A DNA stretch of 33,534 bases from a virus. Taxonomy: Duplodnaviria; Heunggongvirae; Uroviricota; Caudoviricetes. A program made the translations under genes and the position numbers. Positions 11,473 to 28,512 of this stretch are shown here, one piece after another; within the stretch, counting starts at the first letter, position 1; each line of letters begins with the position of its first letter. Where the stretch lies: the IMG/VR virus record IMGVR_UViG_2558860170_000005; one strand, given 5' to 3'. The notes under the pieces were generated by a model, which had not been told where the DNA came from, ran no database searches, and saw only the letters and a program-made list of their open reading frames with translations.

Positions 11473-11748
11473 GTGGCTTCTGTTTCTATCAGCTGTCCCT
11501 CCTGTTCAGCTACTGACGGGGTGGTGCGTAACGGCAAAAGCACTGCCGGACATCAGCGCTATCTCTGCTCTCACTGCCGTAAAACATGGCAACTGCAGTT
11601 CACTTACACCGCTTCCCAACCCGGTACGCACCAGAAAATCATTGATATGGCCATGAATGGCGTTGGATGCCGGGCAACTGCACGCATTATGGGCGTTGGC
11701 CTCAACACGATTTTACGTCACTTAAAAAACTCAGGCCGCAGTCGGTAA
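11473..11748 (+). CDS. insA: IS1 InsA
   Basis: Same as copy 1. Confidence 0.95.
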
Positions 11749-12170
11749 CCTCGCGCATACAGCCGGGCAGTGACGTCATCGTCTGCGCGGAAATGGACGA
11801 ACAGTGGGGCTATGTCGGGGCTAAATCGCGCCAGCGCTGGCTGTTTTACGCGTATGACAGTCTCCGGAAGACGGTTGTTGCGCACGTATTCGGTGAACGC
11901 ACTATGGCGACGCTGGGGCGTCTTATGAGCCTGCTGTCACCCTTTGACGTGGTGATATGGATGACGGATGGCTGGCCGCTGTATGAATCCCGCCTGAAGG
12001 GAAAGCTGCACGTAATCAGCAAGCGATATACGCAGCGAATTGAGCGGCATAACCTGAATCTGAGGCAGCACCTGGCACGGCTGGGACGGAAGTCGCTGTC
12101 GTTCTCAAAATCGGTGGAGCTGCATGACAAAGTCATCGGGCATTATCTGAACATAAAACACTATCAATAA
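11667..12170 (+). CDS. insB: IS1 InsB
   Basis: Same as copy 1. Confidence 0.95.
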
Positions 12171-14988: not shown

Positions 14989-15264
14989 GTGGCTTCTGTT
15001 TCTATCAGCTGTCCCTCCTGTTCAGCTACTGACGGGGTGGTGCGTAACGGCAAAAGCACTGCCGGACATCAGCGCTATCTCTGCTCTCACTGCCGTAAAA
15101 CATGGCAACTGCAGTTCACTTACACCGCTTCTCAACCCGGTACGCACCAGAAAATCATTGATATGGCCATGAATGGCGTTGGATGCCGGGCAACTGCACG
15201 CATTATGGGCGTTGGCCTCAACACGATTTTACGTCACTTAAAAAACTCAGGCCGCAGTCGGTAA
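14989..15264 (+). CDS. insA: IS1 InsA
   Basis: Same as copy 1. Confidence 0.95.
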
Positions 15265-15686
15265 CCTCGCGCATACAGCCGGGCAGTGACGTCATCGTCT
15301 GCGCGGAAATGGACGAACAGTGGGGCTATGTCGGGGCTAAATCGCGCCAGCGCTGGCTGTTTTACGCGTATGACAGTCTCCGGAAGACGGTTGTTGCGCA
15401 CGTATTCGGTGAACGCACTATGGCGACGCTGGGGCGTCTTATGAGCCTGCTGTCACCCTTTGACGTGGTGATATGGATGACGGATGGCTGGCCGCTGTAT
15501 GAATCCCGCCTGAAGGGAAAGCTGCACGTAATCAGCAAGCGATATACGCAGCGAATTGAGCGGCATAACCTGAATCTGAGGCAGCACCTGGCACGGCTGG
15601 GACGGAAGTCGCTGTCGTTCTCAAAATCGGTGGAGCTGCATGACAAAGTCATCGGGCATTATCTGAACATAAAACACTATCAATAA
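15183..15686 (+). CDS. insB: IS1 InsB
   Basis: Same as copy 1. Confidence 0.95.
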
Positions 15687-16242: not shown

Positions 16243-17061
16243 ATGTGTCAGGTATTTGGTGTATCCAGGAGCGGTTATTACAACTGGGTACAGCATGAAC
16301 CCTCAGACAGAAAACAAAGTGATGAGCGGCTAAAACTGGAGATTAAGGTGGCACATATCCGCACTCGCGAAACATATGGAACCCGGCGGCTCCAGACGGA
16401 GCTGGCAGAGAATGGCATCATCGTTGGTCGTGACCGACTGGCACGTCTTCGTAAGGAGCTAAGGCTACGCTGTAAGCAGAAACGCAAGTTCAGAGCGACT
16501 ACGAACTCGAACCACAATCTGCCAGTTGCGCCAAATCTGCTGAACCAGACGTTCGCTCCTACAGCACCAAATCAGGTCTGGGTGGCGGACCTGACGTATG
16601 TTGCCACACTGGAGGGATGGTTGTACCTCGCTGGCATCAAAGATGTTTATACGTGCGAAATTGTCGGCTACGCCATGGGAGAGCGCATGACAAAAGAGCT
16701 GACAGGTAAAGCCCTGTTTATGGCGCTCAGGAGCCAGCGCCCACCTGCCGGGCTAATCCACCACTCTGATCGAGGTTCACAGTACTGCGCATACGATTAC
16801 CGGGTCATACAGGAGCAGTTTGGTCTGAAAACATCAATGTCGCGTAAAGGTAACTGTTACGACAACGCTCCGATGGAAAGCTTCTGGGGAACGCTGAAAA
16901 ATGAGAGCCTGAGCCACTATCGTTTTAATAACCGGGATGAAGCCATCTCAGTAATACGGGAATACATTGAGATTTTCTACAATCGTCAGCGTCGTCACTC
17001 TCGTCTGGGGAATATCTCCCCGGCAGCCTTCAGGGAAAAATATCATCAGATGGCTGCTTAA
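16243..17061 (+). CDS. IS600 OrfB
   Basis: Same as other copies (Q→L variant in VATLEGW). Confidence 0.95.
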   Translation: MCQVFGVSRSGYYNWVQHEPSDRKQSDERLKLEIKVAHIRTRETYGTRRLQTELAENGIIVGRDRLARLRKELRLRCKQKRKFRATTNSNHNLPVAPNLLNQTFAPTAPNQVWVADLTYVATLEGWLYLAGIKDVYTCEIVGYAMGERMTKELTGKALFMALRSQRPPAGLIHHSDRGSQYCAYDYRVIQEQFGLKTSMSRKGNCYDNAPMESFWGTLKNESLSHYRFNNRDEAISVIREYIEIFYNRQRRHSRLGNISPAAFREKYHQMAA

Positions 17062-17488: not shown

Positions 17489-18235
17489 CTACTTAACAAC
17501 CCTCGAATGGCTAACATTCGGACGCCAGCTCTCCCAGTTAAAATTCACCCAGCGCCCGCCGTTCATGACCATGCGATCCATCACCCGCTCGCCGAGAAGT
17601 GTATTCATCGCTGCATGGTTAATATTTGTCAGCATCCCCACACCGCGTAACGATGCCGTCCGGCGATCAACAATCTGGTTCAGTACCACCTGCTCGTTTT
17701 TCGTATCCCGCTGCATGCCAATTTCATCCAGGACCAGCAGGTCAACACCACAAAGCTCCTGTAAAAATTTTTCACCGGATTTGCCGTTGTCGTAGCTCTC
17801 ATGCAACACGCTCATGACATCGGACACGGTGACGATAATCACGCTACGCCCCTTCGCCATCAGCCGGTTGCCAATCGCGTCTGCAAGATGATTTTTTCCG
17901 GTGCCGGGCTTACCGCTGAACACAAAATTCGTACAGCCTGTCATCAGTTCGTCAGCTATGGATTTCGCCTGACTCAGTGCATGTCGCTGACCGTCGTTCT
18001 GCGCCCGGTAATTCGCAAACGAACACTTCCGGTGCAACGGCTGGATGCCGGAGCGGTTCAGGATTTTTTCCACCCGCAACTGACGATTCAGGCGGTTGAT
18101 CTCCTCGCAACGTTTCTGGCCTTCAGCAAGTTGCCACTCGCGCCACTCCGCAACCGTTCTGAATGGGGCGGTTACATGTGGTGGGGTCAGTCTGCGGATA
18201 CGCTCCAGAACGCCTCCTGTCGCAATATTTTTCAT
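17489..18235 (-). CDS. DnaC-like helicase loader (phage replication protein)
   Basis: Walker A FSGKPGTGKNHLA, Walker B DLLVLDEIG; overall resemblance to E. coli DnaC / Rac YdaV. Confidence 0.75.
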   Translation of the reverse strand: MKNIATGGVLERIRRLTPPHVTAPFRTVAEWREWQLAEGQKRCEEINRLNRQLRVEKILNRSGIQPLHRKCSFANYRAQNDGQRHALSQAKSIADELMTGCTNFVFSGKPGTGKNHLADAIGNRLMAKGRSVIIVTVSDVMSVLHESYDNGKSGEKFLQELCGVDLLVLDEIGMQRDTKNEQVVLNQIVDRRTASLRGVGMLTNINHAAMNTLLGERVMDRMVMNGGRWVNFNWESWRPNVSHSRVVK

Positions 18236-18241
18236 GGTCTG

Positions 18242-19393
18242 TTACCCCCTGAAGCCTGGCGGGATCGCACTGTCCGGCAACGAGACGGTGTTAACCTGTC
18301 GGAGCAACGTCTCAGGCCGAACACCTTTCGGCGCGAACAGACCCTGGTATTCATTGGCGATGCTGTGTCGAATCACCTGCTCAGGTGTAAAACCCTGCTG
18401 ACGGAATTTTTCCAGTTCCCGTATCGCCCCGTTAGCGCCCTGCTCCGTTCGAATCGGTTTTCGCAATGCCTGCCTGAACTGGACCCACTCATGCCAGAGT
18501 GTTTCTGGCAACCAGTCGGGCAGATCAACTGACAACGGGTCAAATTTTTTCTGGCGAACAGCCCCACCGATAACCAGAATTCCCTGCTCGGTGTGCCTTG
18601 CGATATCACTGCGCCGCAAGACACATATCCCGGTTTCAACAGCACCGATTTTGAGCAGTGATTTCTGTCGCGGAGAATTTCGGTCAAGCTCGCTCCCACA
18701 CCGGACACCGTTCCTGTCAGTCACGACGATATCAATCCGCCCTCCGCAACCGTCACCACGCTCTGGCACCGGATACTCACGACAGACATCCAGGCCAGCA
18801 GCCTGCAACGCAACCACCGCAGAATTACAAAATTCCGCTGCAGTACCGCCAGATAATCTCCCCTCAAGCACTCCAGCCACAAAATCCCGAAACTCCCTTC
18901 CGGAAGGGAAGGGTTTGGGATGGGTTAGATCTGTTTTTAGATCTTTATCTGTATCTTTATTAGTTGCCTTTGTGTTGGCATCATGTTCGAACATCACTCC
19001 AACATCTGTTTGAACACCTGTTAAATTTCTCTCTTGTTTTGTTTGAACATCTGCTTCCTTTCTGCTTCTTCTGGCCTGAACAGATGCTTTTCCTGCGGCT
19101 GATTTTTTGGTTAATTTTTCTCTGACAGATGCCAGATCTTCCTCAATCCGAAGATGCATCCATTCGTCGCCGTTATCACAAAAAAACTCCCGCAAGGATG
19201 GTTCAACATCAACCCATCGCTCGTTAGTCAGACGGGCAATTTTTGCCAACCTGTTTTTGGGTATTGGCTTTCCTGTTTGCCAGTAATTGAACATCAGCAA
19301 CAAATACGCGCCGTGCTCCTCTGCTGACAAATGCATGGTGTCAGCCAGGTAATCAGCTATGTACAGTTGCATGTATGGTAATGCGGCCATAAT
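18242..19393 (-). CDS. Replication initiator (YdaU/DUF1376-type N-terminus, O-like role)
   Basis: N-terminal …LPYMQLYIADYLADTMHLSAEEHGAY… motif; lies immediately upstream of the DnaC-like gene; iteron cluster inside. Start could be 19441 instead. Confidence 0.6.
   Translation of the reverse strand: MMAALPYMQLYIADYLADTMHLSAEEHGAYLLLMFNYWQTGKPIPKNRLAKIARLTNERWVDVEPSLREFFCDNGDEWMHLRIEEDLASVREKLTKKSAAGKASVQARRSRKEADVQTKQERNLTGVQTDVGVMFEHDANTKATNKDTDKDLKTDLTHPKPFPSGREFRDFVAGVLEGRLSGGTAAEFCNSAVVALQAAGLDVCREYPVPERGDGCGGRIDIVVTDRNGVRCGSELDRNSPRQKSLLKIGAVETGICVLRRSDIARHTEQGILVIGGAVRQKKFDPLSVDLPDWLPETLWHEWVQFRQALRKPIRTEQGANGAIRELEKFRQQGFTPEQVIRHSIANEYQGLFAPKGVRPETLLRQVNTVSLPDSAIPPGFRG
18984..19051. 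repeat. Iteron-like repeats (candidate origin) inside the initiator gene
   Basis: TGTTCGAACATC (18984), TGTTTGAACACC (19007), TGTTTGAACATC (19040); adjacent AT-rich tract with TTAGATCT repeated at 18925 and 18937. Confidence 0.5.
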
Positions 19394-19453
19394 TGCCCCG
19401 TATGATGCTGCCCGGTTGCTTAGAATAAGCACAAACAGCATGGAAACTTTTGC

Positions 19454-19876
19454 TTAATGAACAATGACAGAATCGTCGGAAGACCCGCCGCCGCTGAAAT
19501 GCGCTTTCCGGTAAACGGCCTGGACTGCATCATCATGCGCATCAATTGCCGTACTCAACGCTTCCTGCGCCGCCAGTAATGCACGGCGTTCCAGGGTATC
19601 GAAGATGCAGAGTCGGTGACGCAGCTCGCGCGGAAGAATTGCCAGAACCGCAGGGATCAGTTTCTGAATTTTTTCCCTTTGCGCTTTCGTTTCACCTTTC
19701 AACCAACGGTGATAGATATTCTGCTGATTGTTCCAGTCCTTGCCTGGTACAAGGGGCAATTCGCCGCCCCCCTGGCGCAGATATTCTTCAGTAATTGCGT
19801 TAGCGACCCACGCCTGCCCTTTTTCGGCTGCCAGGGCTAACAACACTGATTCGATGTGCTCATGCCTGATTTTCAT
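19454..19876 (-). CDS. YdaT-like phage regulatory protein
   Basis: 140-aa ORF directly downstream of the cro-like gene with ATGA-type overlap, same position as Rac ydaT. Confidence 0.4.
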   Translation of the reverse strand: MKIRHEHIESVLLALAAEKGQAWVANAITEEYLRQGGGELPLVPGKDWNNQQNIYHRWLKGETKAQREKIQKLIPAVLAILPRELRHRLCIFDTLERRALLAAQEALSTAIDAHDDAVQAVYRKAHFSGGGSSDDSVIVH

Positions 19877-20115
19877 GAATCAACCGCTCCTATGCTGTTT
19901 TCGCTATGCTTACCGTCTGGGGGGAATACATCGTCAAGTCCACAATGAGCGCCAAGCCGATTAAGGGTAGAAACAATTTTTCTGCACTCCTCTAGTCCAG
20001 GGGTACGAAAATTTGCTTCGTAATTTGCCAGTCGGCTTTGTATCCACCCTAACTGAACAGCAAGTTGTCTTTGAGACAGCCCAAGCTGTTTTCGATATGT
20101 TGAAATTTTGTTCAT
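19873..20115 (-). CDS. Cro-like HTH regulator (YdaS-like)
   Basis: 80-aa ORF with HTH (…LGLSQRQLAVQLGWIQSRLANYE…), divergent from the cI-like gene; GGAGG 8 nt upstream of ATG. Confidence 0.6.
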   Translation of the reverse strand: MNKISTYRKQLGLSQRQLAVQLGWIQSRLANYEANFRTPGLEECRKIVSTLNRLGAHCGLDDVFPPDGKHSENSIGAVDS

Positions 20116-20139
20116 TGAAAACCTCCGATGACAATTTTA

Positions 20140-20154
20140 AACACACCTTGTGTT
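20140..20154. promoter_or_regulatory. Operator palindrome AACAC-N5-GTGTT (OR-type)
   Basis: AACACACCTTGTGTT, 25-39 bp upstream of the cro-like start; same half-sites recur at 20715-20729. Confidence 0.55.
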
Positions 20155-20185
20155 ATATAGCCAAGCTGTTTTGTGTTTTATGTAA

Positions 20186-20200
20186 ATCACGATTCGTGAT
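20186..20200. promoter_or_regulatory. Operator-like palindrome ATCAC-N5-GTGAT
   Basis: ATCACGATTCGTGAT, perfect 15-bp palindrome just upstream of the cI-like start. Confidence 0.45.
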
Positions 20201-20211
20201 ACAAGGATGCA

Positions 20212-20631
20212 ATGGAAAAAGAAAACGAAAAAATTGCCGCTAGTAGGCTCAATGACAAAATTGCAATGCGTCTTAAAGAGCGCAGGCAGAAGCTTGGTTT
20301 ATCTCAAGGAAAACTTGCTGAAATCTGCGGATGGACGCAATCGCGTATAGGTAACTATGAGGCGGGCAGCAGAAATGTTGGAGTACATGACGCTGTCGTA
20401 TTGGGAAAGGCACTTGGCATATCTCCTCCTGAGCTCCTCTTTGGAGAACAGGAATCTTCTGAATTGTGGTTAAATGAATCCCAACGAAAACTTCTTGAGT
20501 TGTTTAACCAGCTACCGGGCTCAGAACAACAACGAATGATTGAGCTATTTGAAGTCCGGCTAAAAGAAATCGATGAGTATGTAGAAAAATATTTGAGAGG
20601 CAGGATTAAAGATAATCCCCCACCGGAATAA
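20212..20631 (+). CDS. CI-like repressor (XRE-family HTH)
   Basis: 139-aa ORF with N-terminal HTH (…LGLSQGKLAEICGWTQSRIGNYE…), divergent from the cro-like gene and followed by a terminator. Confidence 0.6.
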   Translation: MEKENEKIAASRLNDKIAMRLKERRQKLGLSQGKLAEICGWTQSRIGNYEAGSRNVGVHDAVVLGKALGISPPELLFGEQESSELWLNESQRKLLELFNQLPGSEQQRMIELFEVRLKEIDEYVEKYLRGRIKDNPPPE

Positions 20632-20661
20632 TGATCTTGCTATCACAGTAATATGCCAATC

Positions 20662-20686
20662 AGCCCGCTATCAGCGGGCTTTTTTG
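20662..20686 (+). terminator. Intrinsic terminator after the repressor gene
   Basis: AGCCCGC-tatca-GCGGGCT followed by TTTTTTG. Confidence 0.65.
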
Positions 20687-20714
20687 TAGCATCATCATAT
20701 GACACTCACCATAA

Positions 20715-21126: not shown

Positions 21127-22288
21127 CTACTCCTAAATAGCTGCGCGGAATAGTAGATCACTTTGAGGGAACTTAGCCCGGATTGTGCGATCTGATCAAT
21201 CGCCAAATCAAAACAAATCACCAACCGGACTGAGCAATGCCGATCATAGCACCAATTTCCCGTGACGAACGACGCCTGATGCAGAAAGCCATCCATAAAA
21301 CACACGATAAAAATTATGCCCGCAGACTGACTGCCATGCTGATGCTGCACCGGGGCGACCGTGTCAGCGACGTTGCCAGAACGCTCTGCTGCGCCCGTTC
21401 CTCTGTTGGACGCTGGATTAACTGGTTCACGCAGTCGGGTGTTGAGGGACTGAAATCATTACCTGCCGGGCGTGCCCGTCGCTGGCCGTTTGAGCATATC
21501 TGCACACTGTTACGTGAGCTGGTAAAACATTCTCCCGGCGACTTTGGCTACCAGCGTTCACGCTGGAGTACAGAACTGCTGGCAATAAAAATCAATGAGA
21601 TAACCGGTTGCCAGTTAAATGCCGGAACCGTTCGCCGCTGGTTGCCGTCTGCGGGGATTGTGTGGCGAAGGGCTGCGCCAACTCTGCGTATCCGTGACCC
21701 GCATAAAGATGAAAAGATGGCAGCAATCCATAAAGCACTGGACGAATGCAGCGCAGAGCATCCGGTCTTTTATGAAGATGAAGTGGATATCCATCTTAAT
21801 CCCAAAATCGGTGCGGACTGGCAACTGCGCGGACAGCAAAAACGGGTGGTCACGCCGGGACAGAATGAAAAATATTATCTGGCCGGAGCGCTGCACAGCG
21901 GGACAGGTAAAGTCAGCTGTGTGGGCGGCAACAGCAAAAGTTCGGCGCTGTTCATCAGCCTGCTGAAGCGGCTTAAAGCGACATACCGTCGGGCGAAAAC
22001 CATCACGCTGATCGTGGACAACTACATTATCCACAAAAGCCGGGAAACACAGAGCTGGCTGAAGGAGAACCCGAAGTTCAGGGTCATTTATCAGCCGGTT
22101 TACTCGCCATGGGTGAATCATGTTGAACGGCTATGGCAGGCACTTCACGACACAATAACGCGTAATCATCAGTGCAGCTCAATGTGGCAACTGTTGAAAA
22201 AAGTTCGCCATTTTATGGAAACCGTCAGCCCATTCCCCGGAGGCAAACATGGGCTGGCAAAAGTGTAGCGGTATTAAGCGCAGCTATT
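21127..22288 (+). mobile_element. IS630 (Tc1/mariner-like), inserted at CTAG with TA duplication
   Basis: Terminal inverted repeat AATAGCTGCGC…; flanks …CTCC-TA | IS | TA-GAAG rebuild a CTAG target; 343-aa transposase. Confidence 0.85.
21237..22268 (+). CDS. IS630 transposase
   Basis: 343-aa MPIIAPISRDERRLMQKAIHKTHDKNYARRL… recognised as IS630 transposase. Confidence 0.9.
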   Translation: MPIIAPISRDERRLMQKAIHKTHDKNYARRLTAMLMLHRGDRVSDVARTLCCARSSVGRWINWFTQSGVEGLKSLPAGRARRWPFEHICTLLRELVKHSPGDFGYQRSRWSTELLAIKINEITGCQLNAGTVRRWLPSAGIVWRRAAPTLRIRDPHKDEKMAAIHKALDECSAEHPVFYEDEVDIHLNPKIGADWQLRGQQKRVVTPGQNEKYYLAGALHSGTGKVSCVGGNSKSSALFISLLKRLKATYRRAKTITLIVDNYIIHKSRETQSWLKENPKFRVIYQPVYSPWVNHVERLWQALHDTITRNHQCSSMWQLLKKVRHFMETVSPFPGGKHGLAKV

Positions 22289-25246: not shown

Positions 25247-26065
25247 ATGTGTCAGGTATTTGGTGTATCCAGGAGCGGTTATTACAACTGGGTACAGCAT
25301 GAACCCTCAGACAGAAAACAAAGTGATGAGCGGCTAAAACTGGAGATTAAGGTGGCACATATCCGCACTCGCGAAACATATGGAACCCGGCGGCTCCAGA
25401 CGGAGCTGGCAGAGAATGGCATCATCGTTGGTCGTGACCGACTGGCACGTCTTCGTAAGGAGCTAAGGCTACGCTGTAAGCAGAAACGCAAGTTCAGAGC
25501 GACTACGAACTCGAACCACAATCTGCCAGTTGCGCCAAATCTGCTGAACCAGACGTTCGCTCCTACAGCACCAAATCAGGTCTGGGTGGCGGACCTGACG
25601 TATGTTGCCACACAGGAGGGATGGTTGTACCTCGCTGGCATCAAAGATGTTTATACGTGCGAAATTGTCGGCTACGCCATGGGAGAGCGCATGACAAAAG
25701 AGCTGACAGGTAAAGCCCTGTTTATGGCGCTCAGGAGCCAGCGCCCACCTGCCGGGCTAATCCACCACTCTGATCGAGGTTCACAGTACTGCGCATACGA
25801 TTACCGGGTCATACAGGAGCAGTCTGGTCTGAAAACATCAATGTCGCGTAAAGGTAACTGTTACGACAACGCTCCGATGGAAAGCTTCTGGGGAACGCTG
25901 AAAAATGAGAGCCTGAGCCACTATCGTTTTAATAACCGGGATGAAGCCATCTCAGTAATACGGGAATACATTGAGATTTTCTACAATCGTCAGCGTCGTC
26001 ACTCTCGTCTGGGGAATATATCCCCGGCAGCCTTCAGGGAAAAATATCATCAGATGGCTGCTTAA
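25247..26065 (+). CDS. IS600 OrfB
   Basis: Same as other copies. Confidence 0.95.
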
Positions 26066-27693: not shown

Positions 27694-28512
27694 TTAAGCA
27701 GCCATCTGATGATATTTTTCCCTGAAGGCTGCCGGGGAGATATTCCCCAGACGAGAGTGACGACGCTGACGATTGTAGAAAATCTCAATGTATTCCCGTA
27801 TTACTGAGATGGCTTCATCCCGGTTATTAAAACGATAGTGGCTCAGGCTCTCATTTTTCAGCGTTCCCCAGAAGCTTTCCATCGGAGCGTTGTCGTAACA
27901 GTTACCTTTACGCGACATTGATGTTTTCAGACCAGACTGCTCCTGTATGACCCGGTAATCGTATGCGCAGTACTGTGAACCTCGATCAGAGTGGTGGATT
28001 AGCCCGGCAGGTGGGCGCTGGCTCCTGAGCGCCATAAACAGGGCTTTACCTGTCAGCTCTTTTGTCATGCGCTCTCCCATGGCGTAGCCGACAATTTCGC
28101 ACGTATAAACATCTTTGATGCCAGCGAGGTACAACCATCCCTCCTGTGTGGCAACATACGTCAGGTCCGCCACCCAGACCTGATTTGGTGCTGTAGGAGC
28201 GAACGTCTGGTTCAGCAGATTTGGCGCAACTGGCAGATTGTGGTTCGAGTTCGTAGTCGCTCTGAACTTGCGTTTCTGCTTACAGCGTAGCCTTAGCTCC
28301 TTACGAAGACGTGCCAGTCGGTCACGACCAACGATGATGCCATTCTCTGCCAGCTCCGTCTGGAGCCGCCGGGTTCCATATGTTTCGCGAGTGCGGATAT
28401 GTGCCACCTTAATCTCCAGTTTTAGCCGCTCATCACTTTGTTTTCTGTCTGAGGGTTCATGCTGTACCCAGTTGTAATAACCGCTCCTGGATACACCAAA
28501 TACCTGACACAT
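27694..28512 (-). CDS. IS600 OrfB
   Basis: Same as other copies. Confidence 0.95.
   Translation of the reverse strand: MCQVFGVSRSGYYNWVQHEPSDRKQSDERLKLEIKVAHIRTRETYGTRRLQTELAENGIIVGRDRLARLRKELRLRCKQKRKFRATTNSNHNLPVAPNLLNQTFAPTAPNQVWVADLTYVATQEGWLYLAGIKDVYTCEIVGYAMGERMTKELTGKALFMALRSQRPPAGLIHHSDRGSQYCAYDYRVIQEQSGLKTSMSRKGNCYDNAPMESFWGTLKNESLSHYRFNNRDEAISVIREYIEIFYNRQRRHSRLGNISPAAFREKYHQMAA

Follow-up and report, generated by a model that had tools for sequence, protein, structure and literature searches.

The window analyzed here is a stretch of 33,534 nucleotides (nt) from a member of the Caudoviricetes (IMG/VR record IMGVR_UViG_2558860170_000005), and the part that concerns us belongs to a Rac-type lambdoid prophage of Escherichia coli or Shigella, of which it forms the immunity and replication module. 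The initiator gene of this module, ydaU, contains three palindromic iterons and an adjacent AT-rich tract in the part that codes for a linker between two protein domains. On comparative evidence we judge, with a probability of roughly 75%, that this segment is the vegetative replication origin of the prophage and that it corresponds to oriJ of the Rac prophage of E. coli K-12. From the sequence we infer binding of the segment by YdaU, its unwinding, helicase loading, and its identity with the genetically defined oriJ. An origin inside the initiator gene of a lambdoid prophage is already a known arrangement and is in itself no surprise. If our placement is correct, the prophage gains a concrete origin candidate with base-level coordinates for both the binding sites and the unwinding element, and the classical, poorly mapped oriJ of Rac would be placed inside ydaU.

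Iterons and AT-rich tract within ydaU

The complete window was searched for matches to the iteron pattern TGTTYGAACAYC, and the chance level was taken from 100 shuffles. Only the three iterons were found; the shuffles gave a mean of 0.08 matches, none of the 100 reached three, and chance is excluded for the three 12-mers. A preliminary description of this DNA had reported three copies of TGTT(C/T)GAACA(T/C)C, and all of them begin at exactly the positions it gave (Table 1). Exact matches to the 10-nt core, TGTTYRAACA, are likewise confined to these three sites within the window. Iterons 1 and 2 are separated by 33 nt, and iterons 2 and 3 by 23 nt; as a result of these spacings, copies 1 and 2 are read as (D/G)VQT, whereas copy 3 is read in another frame as MFEH.

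The three 12-mers belong to a longer array of half-sites, covering approximately positions 18959-19090, in which they are the strongest and the weaker members read TGTTCAGG, GATGTTGGAG, TGCCAACACAA, and AGGCAACTAAT on the gene strand. Working back from the AT-rich tract on the same strand in blocks of 11 nt, the sequences TCAAAC, TTAACA, TCAAAC, TTGGAG, TTCGAAC, TGCCAAC, and AGGCAAC fall in register. Autocorrelation of the window array gave an identity of 0.42 at lag 11, versus 0.287 +/- 0.045 in shuffles (p = 0.0025). The K-12-type gene carries a four-copy repeat family with spacings of 33, 33, and 12.

The preliminary description also claimed an AT-rich tract with a repeated TTAGATCT. The tract itself stands, at 23% G+C, and TTAGATCT does occur twice (at 18925 and 18937, both within the degenerate hexamers described below), but the pair alone is not significant, as 21 of 100 shuffles contained at least two copies. 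On the gene strand, the tract is a series of degenerate hexamers, GATACA GATAAA GATCTA AAAACA GATCTA, coding for D-T-D-K-D-L-K-T-D-L; one of its units is an exact GATACA, and close relatives have two or three exact units. The G+C fraction drops to 0.35-0.41 across 18900-19050, and only two 40-mers in the whole window are less stable than the one at 18925-18964 (z = 3.4), which is the least stable within the replication module. The two GATC sites of the tract are 12 bp apart, a motif that is only partly conserved among relatives. No DnaA boxes were found in or near the segment. An RNA element, a promoter, or a terminator was also considered as an alternative, and nothing credible was found in 18900-19060.

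Conservation of the arrangement in homologous genes

A profile scan with the N-terminal domain of YdaU, restricted to one genome per species, yielded 53 loci from Enterobacterales, Pseudomonas, Azotobacter, Frateuria, Propionivibrio, Alphaproteobacteria, and several metagenome-assembled genomes. At 36 of the 53, three to nine copies of a CGTTSAACG/AACG-type motif stand in an 11-nt register at the same position in the gene and are followed directly by (GATACA)n, where n ranges from 2 to 9, and often then by AAAGATC(T/A)AAAAG. The register was quantified at 25 non-redundant loci, where mean identity was 0.447 at lag 11 versus about 0.26 at other lags. Because the repeats are spaced by 11 nt, they occupy all three codon phases: the YAACR motif was found in the three phases 33, 24, and 16 times, and when position is counted from the tract modulo 11, four adjacent phases contain 71 of these 73 copies. 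The peptides encoded across the repeat array are not conserved among the homologues.

Codon usage in the tract was compared at 37 loci, with hosts spanning 41-66% G+C. Every Asp codon in the tract is GAT (131/131) and every Thr codon is ACA (87/87), whereas elsewhere in the same genes GAT makes up 48% of Asp codons (265/552) and ACA 23% of Thr codons (128/558). The sequence of the tract is thus not dictated by amino acids alone. The preliminary description had raised the possibility that the protein dictates the repeats; it does not, given the different frame of copy 3, the 11-nt register, the lack of a conserved peptide, and the invariant codons of the tract. These comparisons indicate that both the repeats and the AT-rich tract are under constraint at the level of DNA and not of protein.

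More distant genes show the same layout with other sequences. Pseudomonas phages UFJF_PfDIW6, PfAn1, and AH02, with N-terminal domains of 54-67% identity, have variant repeats at the same place, and distant DUF1376 phages of Rhizobium, Acinetobacter, Vibrio, and Leptolyngbya have different short repeats at the equivalent position. Moraxella phage Mcat25 (31% identity) has kept three copies of AACGACCGTTCAAC and an AT-rich stretch; the latter is non-coding because the initiator gene stops inside the element. The initiator of Mcat25 (L068, 1879-1960) is split, such that the gene for the N-terminal domain ends in the element, a separate open reading frame (ORF) follows, and the presumed origin is in part intergenic.

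In the upstream arrays of loci L001-L057, the members of the Rac group (E. coli, Citrobacter braakii, and the window) have only TGTT/AACA half-sites, with 8-10 copies versus 0 of the other type, and most other lineages have CGTT/AACG half-sites. Both halves of the site have changed together, as expected of a symmetric binding site. An attempt to tie the switch from CGTT to TGTT to a particular residue of the N-terminal domain failed, since none tracks it cleanly. Five loci from Kosakonia, Pseudomonas, and Phytobacter (L031, L032, L033, L036, and L038) have a different middle part, which we take to be a T5orf172/GIY-YIG-like domain, together with several CGTAGTAGCTACG-type repeats and without the usual array and (GATACA)n.

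The initiator protein and a possible mechanism

The true start of ydaU is probably the ATG at 19390, giving a protein of 382 amino acids, because homologues begin MAALPY in an alignment of N-terminal domains. The DUF1376 domain, with a predicted winged-helix fold, is presumed to be the iteron-binding domain. In the full-length AlphaFold model, residues 124-165 are disordered, with a confidence score (pLDDT) of about 30, and this stretch is encoded by most of the iteron array and the AT-rich tract. Iteron 1 codes for residues 114-117, at the end of a long helix that the model runs to residue 123. The preliminary description had placed the repeats in the linker part of an O-like/YdaU-type gene. 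The linker and the YdaU type were correctly recognized, but the gene is not O-like by descent: BLASTP of YdaU against lambda O gave E = 1.9, and Pfam finds only DUF1376 in YdaU. Furthermore, lambda O matches PHROG 277 and the N-terminal half of PHROG 678, whereas YdaU matches PHROG 6451 and the C-terminal part of 678. Because the two proteins match opposite parts of it, PHROG 678 appears to be a chimera in which an O-type N-terminal domain is combined with a DnaT-like C-terminal one. By these searches, YdaU is not homologous to lambda O.

A single-sequence phmmer search of the PDB with the C-terminal part of YdaU matched the C-terminal domain of DnaT (2ru8, E = 1.9e-4) and entry 9zbt (E = 7.6e-4). 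YdaU consists of a winged-helix DUF1376 domain followed by a probable DnaT-like C-terminal domain, which would resemble the single-stranded DNA-binding domain at about residues 89-179 of DnaT. Its presumed contact partner is the loader, the helicase, or unwound DNA. The DnaC-like loader that had been noted downstream of the element is full-length ydaV, the next gene downstream of ydaU on the minus strand, which matches NCBIfam NF009043 over residues 1-248 with 504 bits and the DnaC family PRK07952 at 3e-91.

Initiation might proceed as follows. The winged-helix domain of YdaU would bind the array of TGTT/AACA palindromes at three strong and about five weaker sites, which, given their 11-bp register, would lie on roughly one face of the helix. 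Oligomerization of YdaU on the array would then strain and open the adjacent 39-bp tract of degenerate (GATACA)n, and the DnaT-like C-terminal domain, together with the DnaC-like loader YdaV, would place the host DnaB helicase on the opened DNA. Transcription from the promoter on the Cro side would run through the origin, as it does in lambda.

Natural domain swaps bear on this division of labor. In P0099, a common E. coli protein of 376 amino acids from an identical prophage setting, the N-terminal domain is an unrelated one (PHROG 2509, 'replication initiation protein') and is joined to a middle and C-terminal part that is 97% identical to that of the window. Its linker DNA contains different repeats, GGTAACGCTG, CAGCGTTAC, and AGCGTTACC (P0099-type genes also have GGTAACGC), and a different, purine-rich tract, (GAGGAA)3 GATATAAATACTGATC; the junction with the window sequence is exactly at ...GATCTAACCCATCCC, i.e., at the AT-rich tract. 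Conversely, phage Rac-SA53 combines the Rac N-terminal domain with another C-terminal part, and its loader is P-like instead of DnaC-like. The two swaps together indicate that the repeats are tied to the N-terminal domain and the type of loader to the C-terminal one. Lambda O follows the same two-module logic, its N-terminal part being matched to the origin and its C-terminal part to the loader. For DUF1376/YdaU proteins, this suggests that the winged helix reads the origin, that the DNA of the disordered linker is the origin, and that an exchangeable C-terminal domain is matched to the loader; the segment would then be a clear case of one DNA serving as both coding sequence and cis-acting element.

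Comparison with lambda and other known origins

The likeness to lambda ori that the preliminary description drew holds for the layout. In the annotated lambda record, four iterons of 18-19 bp occupy nt 349-433 of the 900-nt gene O, with an AT-rich region to their right; in the window, counted from the likely start, the three strong sites occupy nt 340-407 and the AT-rich tract about nt 428-466. In both, the element lies in the initiator gene between the parts coding for the N- and C-terminal domains, at least three dyad-symmetric repeats are clustered, an AT-rich tract is found beside the iterons on the promoter-distal side, and the initiator gene is downstream of cro- and cII-like genes. The components are different: the sites in the window are only 10-12 bp and belong to an 11-bp-phased array of half-sites, the loader is DnaC/IstB-like, unlike lambda P, and YdaU has a provisionally DnaT-like C-terminal domain.

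Origins within initiator genes are also found outside the lambdoid phages. The RepA_N plasmid initiators (pSK41, pTZ2162, pAD1) have the origin in the center of the rep gene, and among the DnaD-like phage replisome organizers, SPP1 G38P has oriL inside gene 38. In contrast to the RepA_N proteins, Pfam finds only DUF1376 in YdaU, the setting is a phage rather than a plasmid, and the repeats and their spacing differ; relative to the SPP1 G38P-type initiators, YdaU is of a different sequence family. The use of YdaU-type initiators by plasmids was considered as an indirect proof of replicon function, but only 12 records match, mostly very large replicons, and these are uninformative.

Relation to oriJ of the K-12 Rac prophage

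Close relatives of ydaU are present in about 1,500 E. coli genomes, only two of which have the 1,200-nt form found in the window. The window is close in both DNA and gene order to K-12 Rac, in which oriJ was genetically defined: the order racR-like, ydaS-like, ydaT, ydaU, ydaV is common to both, the ydaU genes are about 96% identical over their aligned parts, and the iteron and AT-rich stretch is nearly identical. The difference is an extra module of 126 amino acids in the window gene, where 378 additional nt directly follow the AT-rich tract, versus about 40 in K-12. According to PMC3945230, the origin of the Rac prophage, oriJ, is active, and there are oriJ plasmids as well (Potrykus et al. 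2000, as cited in PMC11014345).

The preliminary description had held that absence of the repeats from replication-competent relatives would count against an origin. They are present: in addition to K-12 Rac, the iteron and AT-rich stretch occurs in the inducible Rac-like phages vB_EcoS-683R6 and Rac-SA53, the latter retaining the hexamers and two strong iterons out of three. In E. coli ECMA0423 and Shigella flexneri SFBU1023 (L007 and L011), foreign DNA (TGGATTTGCCCCTATATTTCC...) breaks up ydaU immediately behind the third iteron, from about nt 405 of the gene onward. This DNA is probably the end of an insertion sequence (IS), the AT-rich tract having been removed there.

Alternative explanations and points against an origin in ydaU

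The repeats might have no role in cis and be simply a by-product of a low-complexity disordered linker combined with a slippage-prone hexanucleotide microsatellite. The region does encode a disordered linker, the length of the tract varies from 2 to 9 units in the manner of a microsatellite, and the reading of the tract as (Asp-Thr)n in 110 of 127 listed viral occurrences means that a protein constraint exists. We nevertheless consider this explanation improbable: synonymous codons in the tract are invariant across hosts of 41-66% G+C, G+C-richer synonymous hexamers are almost absent from initiator genes, the repeats follow an 11-nt and not a codon register and encode no conserved peptide, phage Mcat25 retains the arrangement in non-coding form, and a change of N-terminal domain brings a change of repeats. 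It is just as improbable that the repeats are genuine YdaU sites whose function is autoregulation, as a roadblock or operator within the gene, with the origin lying elsewhere. Initiators often autoregulate, and the co-variation of repeats with the N-terminal domain points to likely binding rather than to origin function as such. However, autoregulation leaves unexplained both the adjacent AT-rich tract, which is conserved and highly unstable, and the association of (GATACA)n with many initiator families; nor was any other candidate combining repeats with AT-rich DNA seen in the coding part of the module (17489-19876).

The probability is lower still that the prophage has its origin elsewhere, in ydaV or in the AT-rich intergenic region at 20050-20250. 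The latter includes the least stable 100-mer of 17489-20200 (20088-20187), but it is a divergent promoter/operator region between two helix-turn-helix (HTH) genes and has no exact TGTTYRAACA. As for ydaV, the quantitative PCR primers named 'oriJ' by De Paepe et al. (PMC3945230, supplementary file 4) map inside the K-12 gene, which also counts against our own placement of oriJ. Such an amplicon, though, need only be near the origin, and this one (L001, 7241-7395) is about 700-850 bp downstream of the iterons and AT-rich element of ydaU. We rejected ydaV as the site of oriJ: the amplicon and its counterpart in the window have only two-copy short repeats at chance level, a G+C content of 53-58%, and no AT-rich tract. 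Least probable of all is that the conserved tract is mainly a joint for module exchange, i.e., shared DNA at which the N- and C-terminal modules of initiators recombine. The tract is common to many initiator families, and the mosaic junctions of the window with the P0099-type gene and with K-12 ydaU are located exactly at it; a joint of this kind is compatible with an origin and no alternative to one, and it would account neither for the phased, family-specific repeats nor for the need for AT-rich codons.

Besides the primer locations, several observations weigh against an origin within ydaU or weaken the evidence for it. The Rac version of the element is degenerate, with its three strong sites unevenly spaced (23 and 33 nt) and its hexamer tract interrupted, and Rac-SA53 is without the first strong copy. 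A conserved stretch within the region coding for the N-terminal domain also has identity peaks at lags 11, 22, and 33 (about 0.36), and the loci compared are not independent samples, because they are homologous. In other initiator families, the lag-11 signal upstream of (GATACA)n is found in only 28% of cases. The protein also constrains the tract, since (GATACA)n is nearly always read as Asp-Thr, and replication slippage could homogenize the units within any one tract. Lastly, the similarity to DnaT is weak: a PDB profile search with a mixed alignment of full-length homologues gave no hits, and the DnaT-like identity of the C-terminal domain is therefore provisional.

(GATACA)n in other viral initiator families

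A scan of IMG/VR for exact (GATACA)3 returned at least 120 loci, and the figures that follow hold among the matches listed. The sequence was read as DTDT in 110 of 127 occurrences and was typically located at residue 120-170 of an ORF of 240-340 amino acids, whereas DUF1376 was encoded upstream in only 18 of 120 loci. Seven representatives without DUF1376 all matched PHROGs for replication initiators, replisome organizers, or DnaD-like proteins. When 104 ORFs containing (GATACA)3 were compared with the PHROGs, 18 of the 25 most-matched families carried an annotation, and all 18 were replication initiators or replisome organizers; the highest counts were for PHROGs 10469 (DnaD-like; 44), 3926 (44), 6451 (30), 3992 (27), 9327 (26), 1408 (21), and 678 (19). 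Short repeats specific to each family are found upstream of (GATACA)3, e.g., nine copies of CGAACGC, GTAACG/CGTTAC, or GTCGCA, many of them at 11-nt spacing. Lag 11 was the strongest period in 28% of 82 non-redundant cases, versus 1-4% for control hexamers.

As a control, four synonymous hexamers were scanned in the same way as GATACA, and for each hexamer we determined what fraction of ORFs was related to the (GATACA)n set. For GATACA itself, 94 of 125 ORFs were related; the corresponding numbers were 0/117 for GACACC, 8/117 for GACACA, 6/114 for GATACC, and 36/121 for GATACT. In initiator genes, only the AT-rich codon choices are in use, which fits an unwinding element that is also translated.

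Tentatively, we propose that these genes may represent a widespread class of phage origin, of which the window would be a rather degenerate member. In this class, family-specific initiator-binding repeats, usually with a phase of approximately 11 bp, would be followed directly by a shared (GATACA)n. The whole would lie in the disordered-linker DNA of six or more initiator or replisome-organizer families that are unrelated to one another. The hexamer, rather than being mere AT-rich filler, would be a specific element for unwinding or single-strand recognition, maintained at synonymous sites even where the host has 60-66% G+C, and would double as a joint for module exchange. The combination of phased repeats and (GATACA)n could serve as a sequence-only signature of origins and initiator genes in uncultured phages. 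The class may be undescribed; neither the (GATACA)3 string nor a link between Rac and iterons was found in open-access text, an older description in a subscription journal being possible, and the open-access literature barely mentions DUF1376/YdaU, with no link to origins found there.

Other features of the module and its surroundings

Table 1. Coordinates of the putative origin, the initiator gene, and neighboring features in the window
Feature	Position	Strand	Remarks
Iteron 1	19040..19051		TGTTTGAACATC; gene strand GATGTTCAAACA, codes for D-V-Q-T
Iteron 2	19007..19018		TGTTTGAACACC; gene strand GGTGTTCAAACA, codes for G-V-Q-T in the same frame as iteron 1
Iteron 3	18984..18995		TGTTCGAACATC; holds the perfect 10-nt palindrome TGTTCGAACA; codes for M-F-E-H in another frame
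Whole array	18959..19090		TGTT/AACA half-sites that share an 11-nt register with the strong iterons
AT-rich tract (presumed DNA-unwinding element)	18925..18963		23% G+C; two GATC sites
Perfect 8+8 palindrome	18894..18909		TCCCTTCCGGAAGGGA; closely follows the AT-rich tract, where the inserted module starts
ydaU-type initiator gene	18242..19441	-	ORF of 399 amino acids; Pfam DUF1376 at residues 22-104; PHROG 6451 'primosomal protein'
DUF1376 N-terminal domain	19130..19378	-	Predicted winged-helix fold, then a long basic helix
Extra 378-nt segment (126 amino acids)	18551..18928	-	Replaces about 40 nt of K-12 ydaU; joins exactly at the AT-rich tract
C-terminal three-helix domain	18245..18523	-	AlphaFold pLDDT 80-90; PHROG 678 positions 208-284
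ydaV, DnaC/IstB-like helicase loader	17489..18235	-	248 amino acids, apparently intact; PHROG 50
cII/YdaT-like gene	19454..19876	-	Upstream part of the leftward transcription unit of ydaU
Cro-like HTH gene	19873..20115	-	Upstream part of the leftward transcription unit; faces the divergent repressor gene
Weak promoter-like site	20134..20105	-	Consensus match only

The palindrome TCCCTTCCGGAAGGGA was also flagged as terminator-like on the minus strand, and the equivalent place in K-12 reads CCCCCGGGGG; its role is uncertain, and palindromes downstream of the tract are not general in the family. By analogy with lambda, a GC-rich palindrome after the AT-rich tract was considered as a general third element of such origins but was discarded, downstream arm lengths being 5.4 versus 4.6 and 6.0 in controls.

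The 378-nt segment and the C-terminal domain form a separate module. The 126 amino acids encoded in frame by the segment match PHROG 1347 ('function unknown'), gave a low-confidence alpha/beta model, and contain the motifs GRIDIVV...ELD; the same module is found in Salmonella (P0001) and behind the unrelated N-terminal domain of the E. coli protein P0099. In RefSeq, the identical gene of strain FDAARGOS_944 is annotated as two pseudogene fragments, yet the ORF is intact.

Just past the repressor gene, a weak match to the Rfam Trp leader (20601-20687; 25.8 bits versus a gathering threshold of 41, E = 0.035) is probably due to chance. Elsewhere in the window, five ORFs are exactly 272 amino acids long (2266-3084, 16243-17061, 25247-26065, 27694-28512, and 32182-33000), three are of 167 amino acids (1128-1631, 11667-12170, and 15183-15686), and one is of 343 (21237-22268). 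Judging from their translations, we take the ORF at 16243-17061 to be orfB of an IS3-family transposase and the 343-amino acid ORF to be an IS630-type transposase. An IS directly adjoins the DUF977 gene that follows ydaV closely on its downstream side, and the IS630-like element lies beyond the repressor gene; the window appears to be heavily loaded with insertion sequences, and the prophage is broken up by them.

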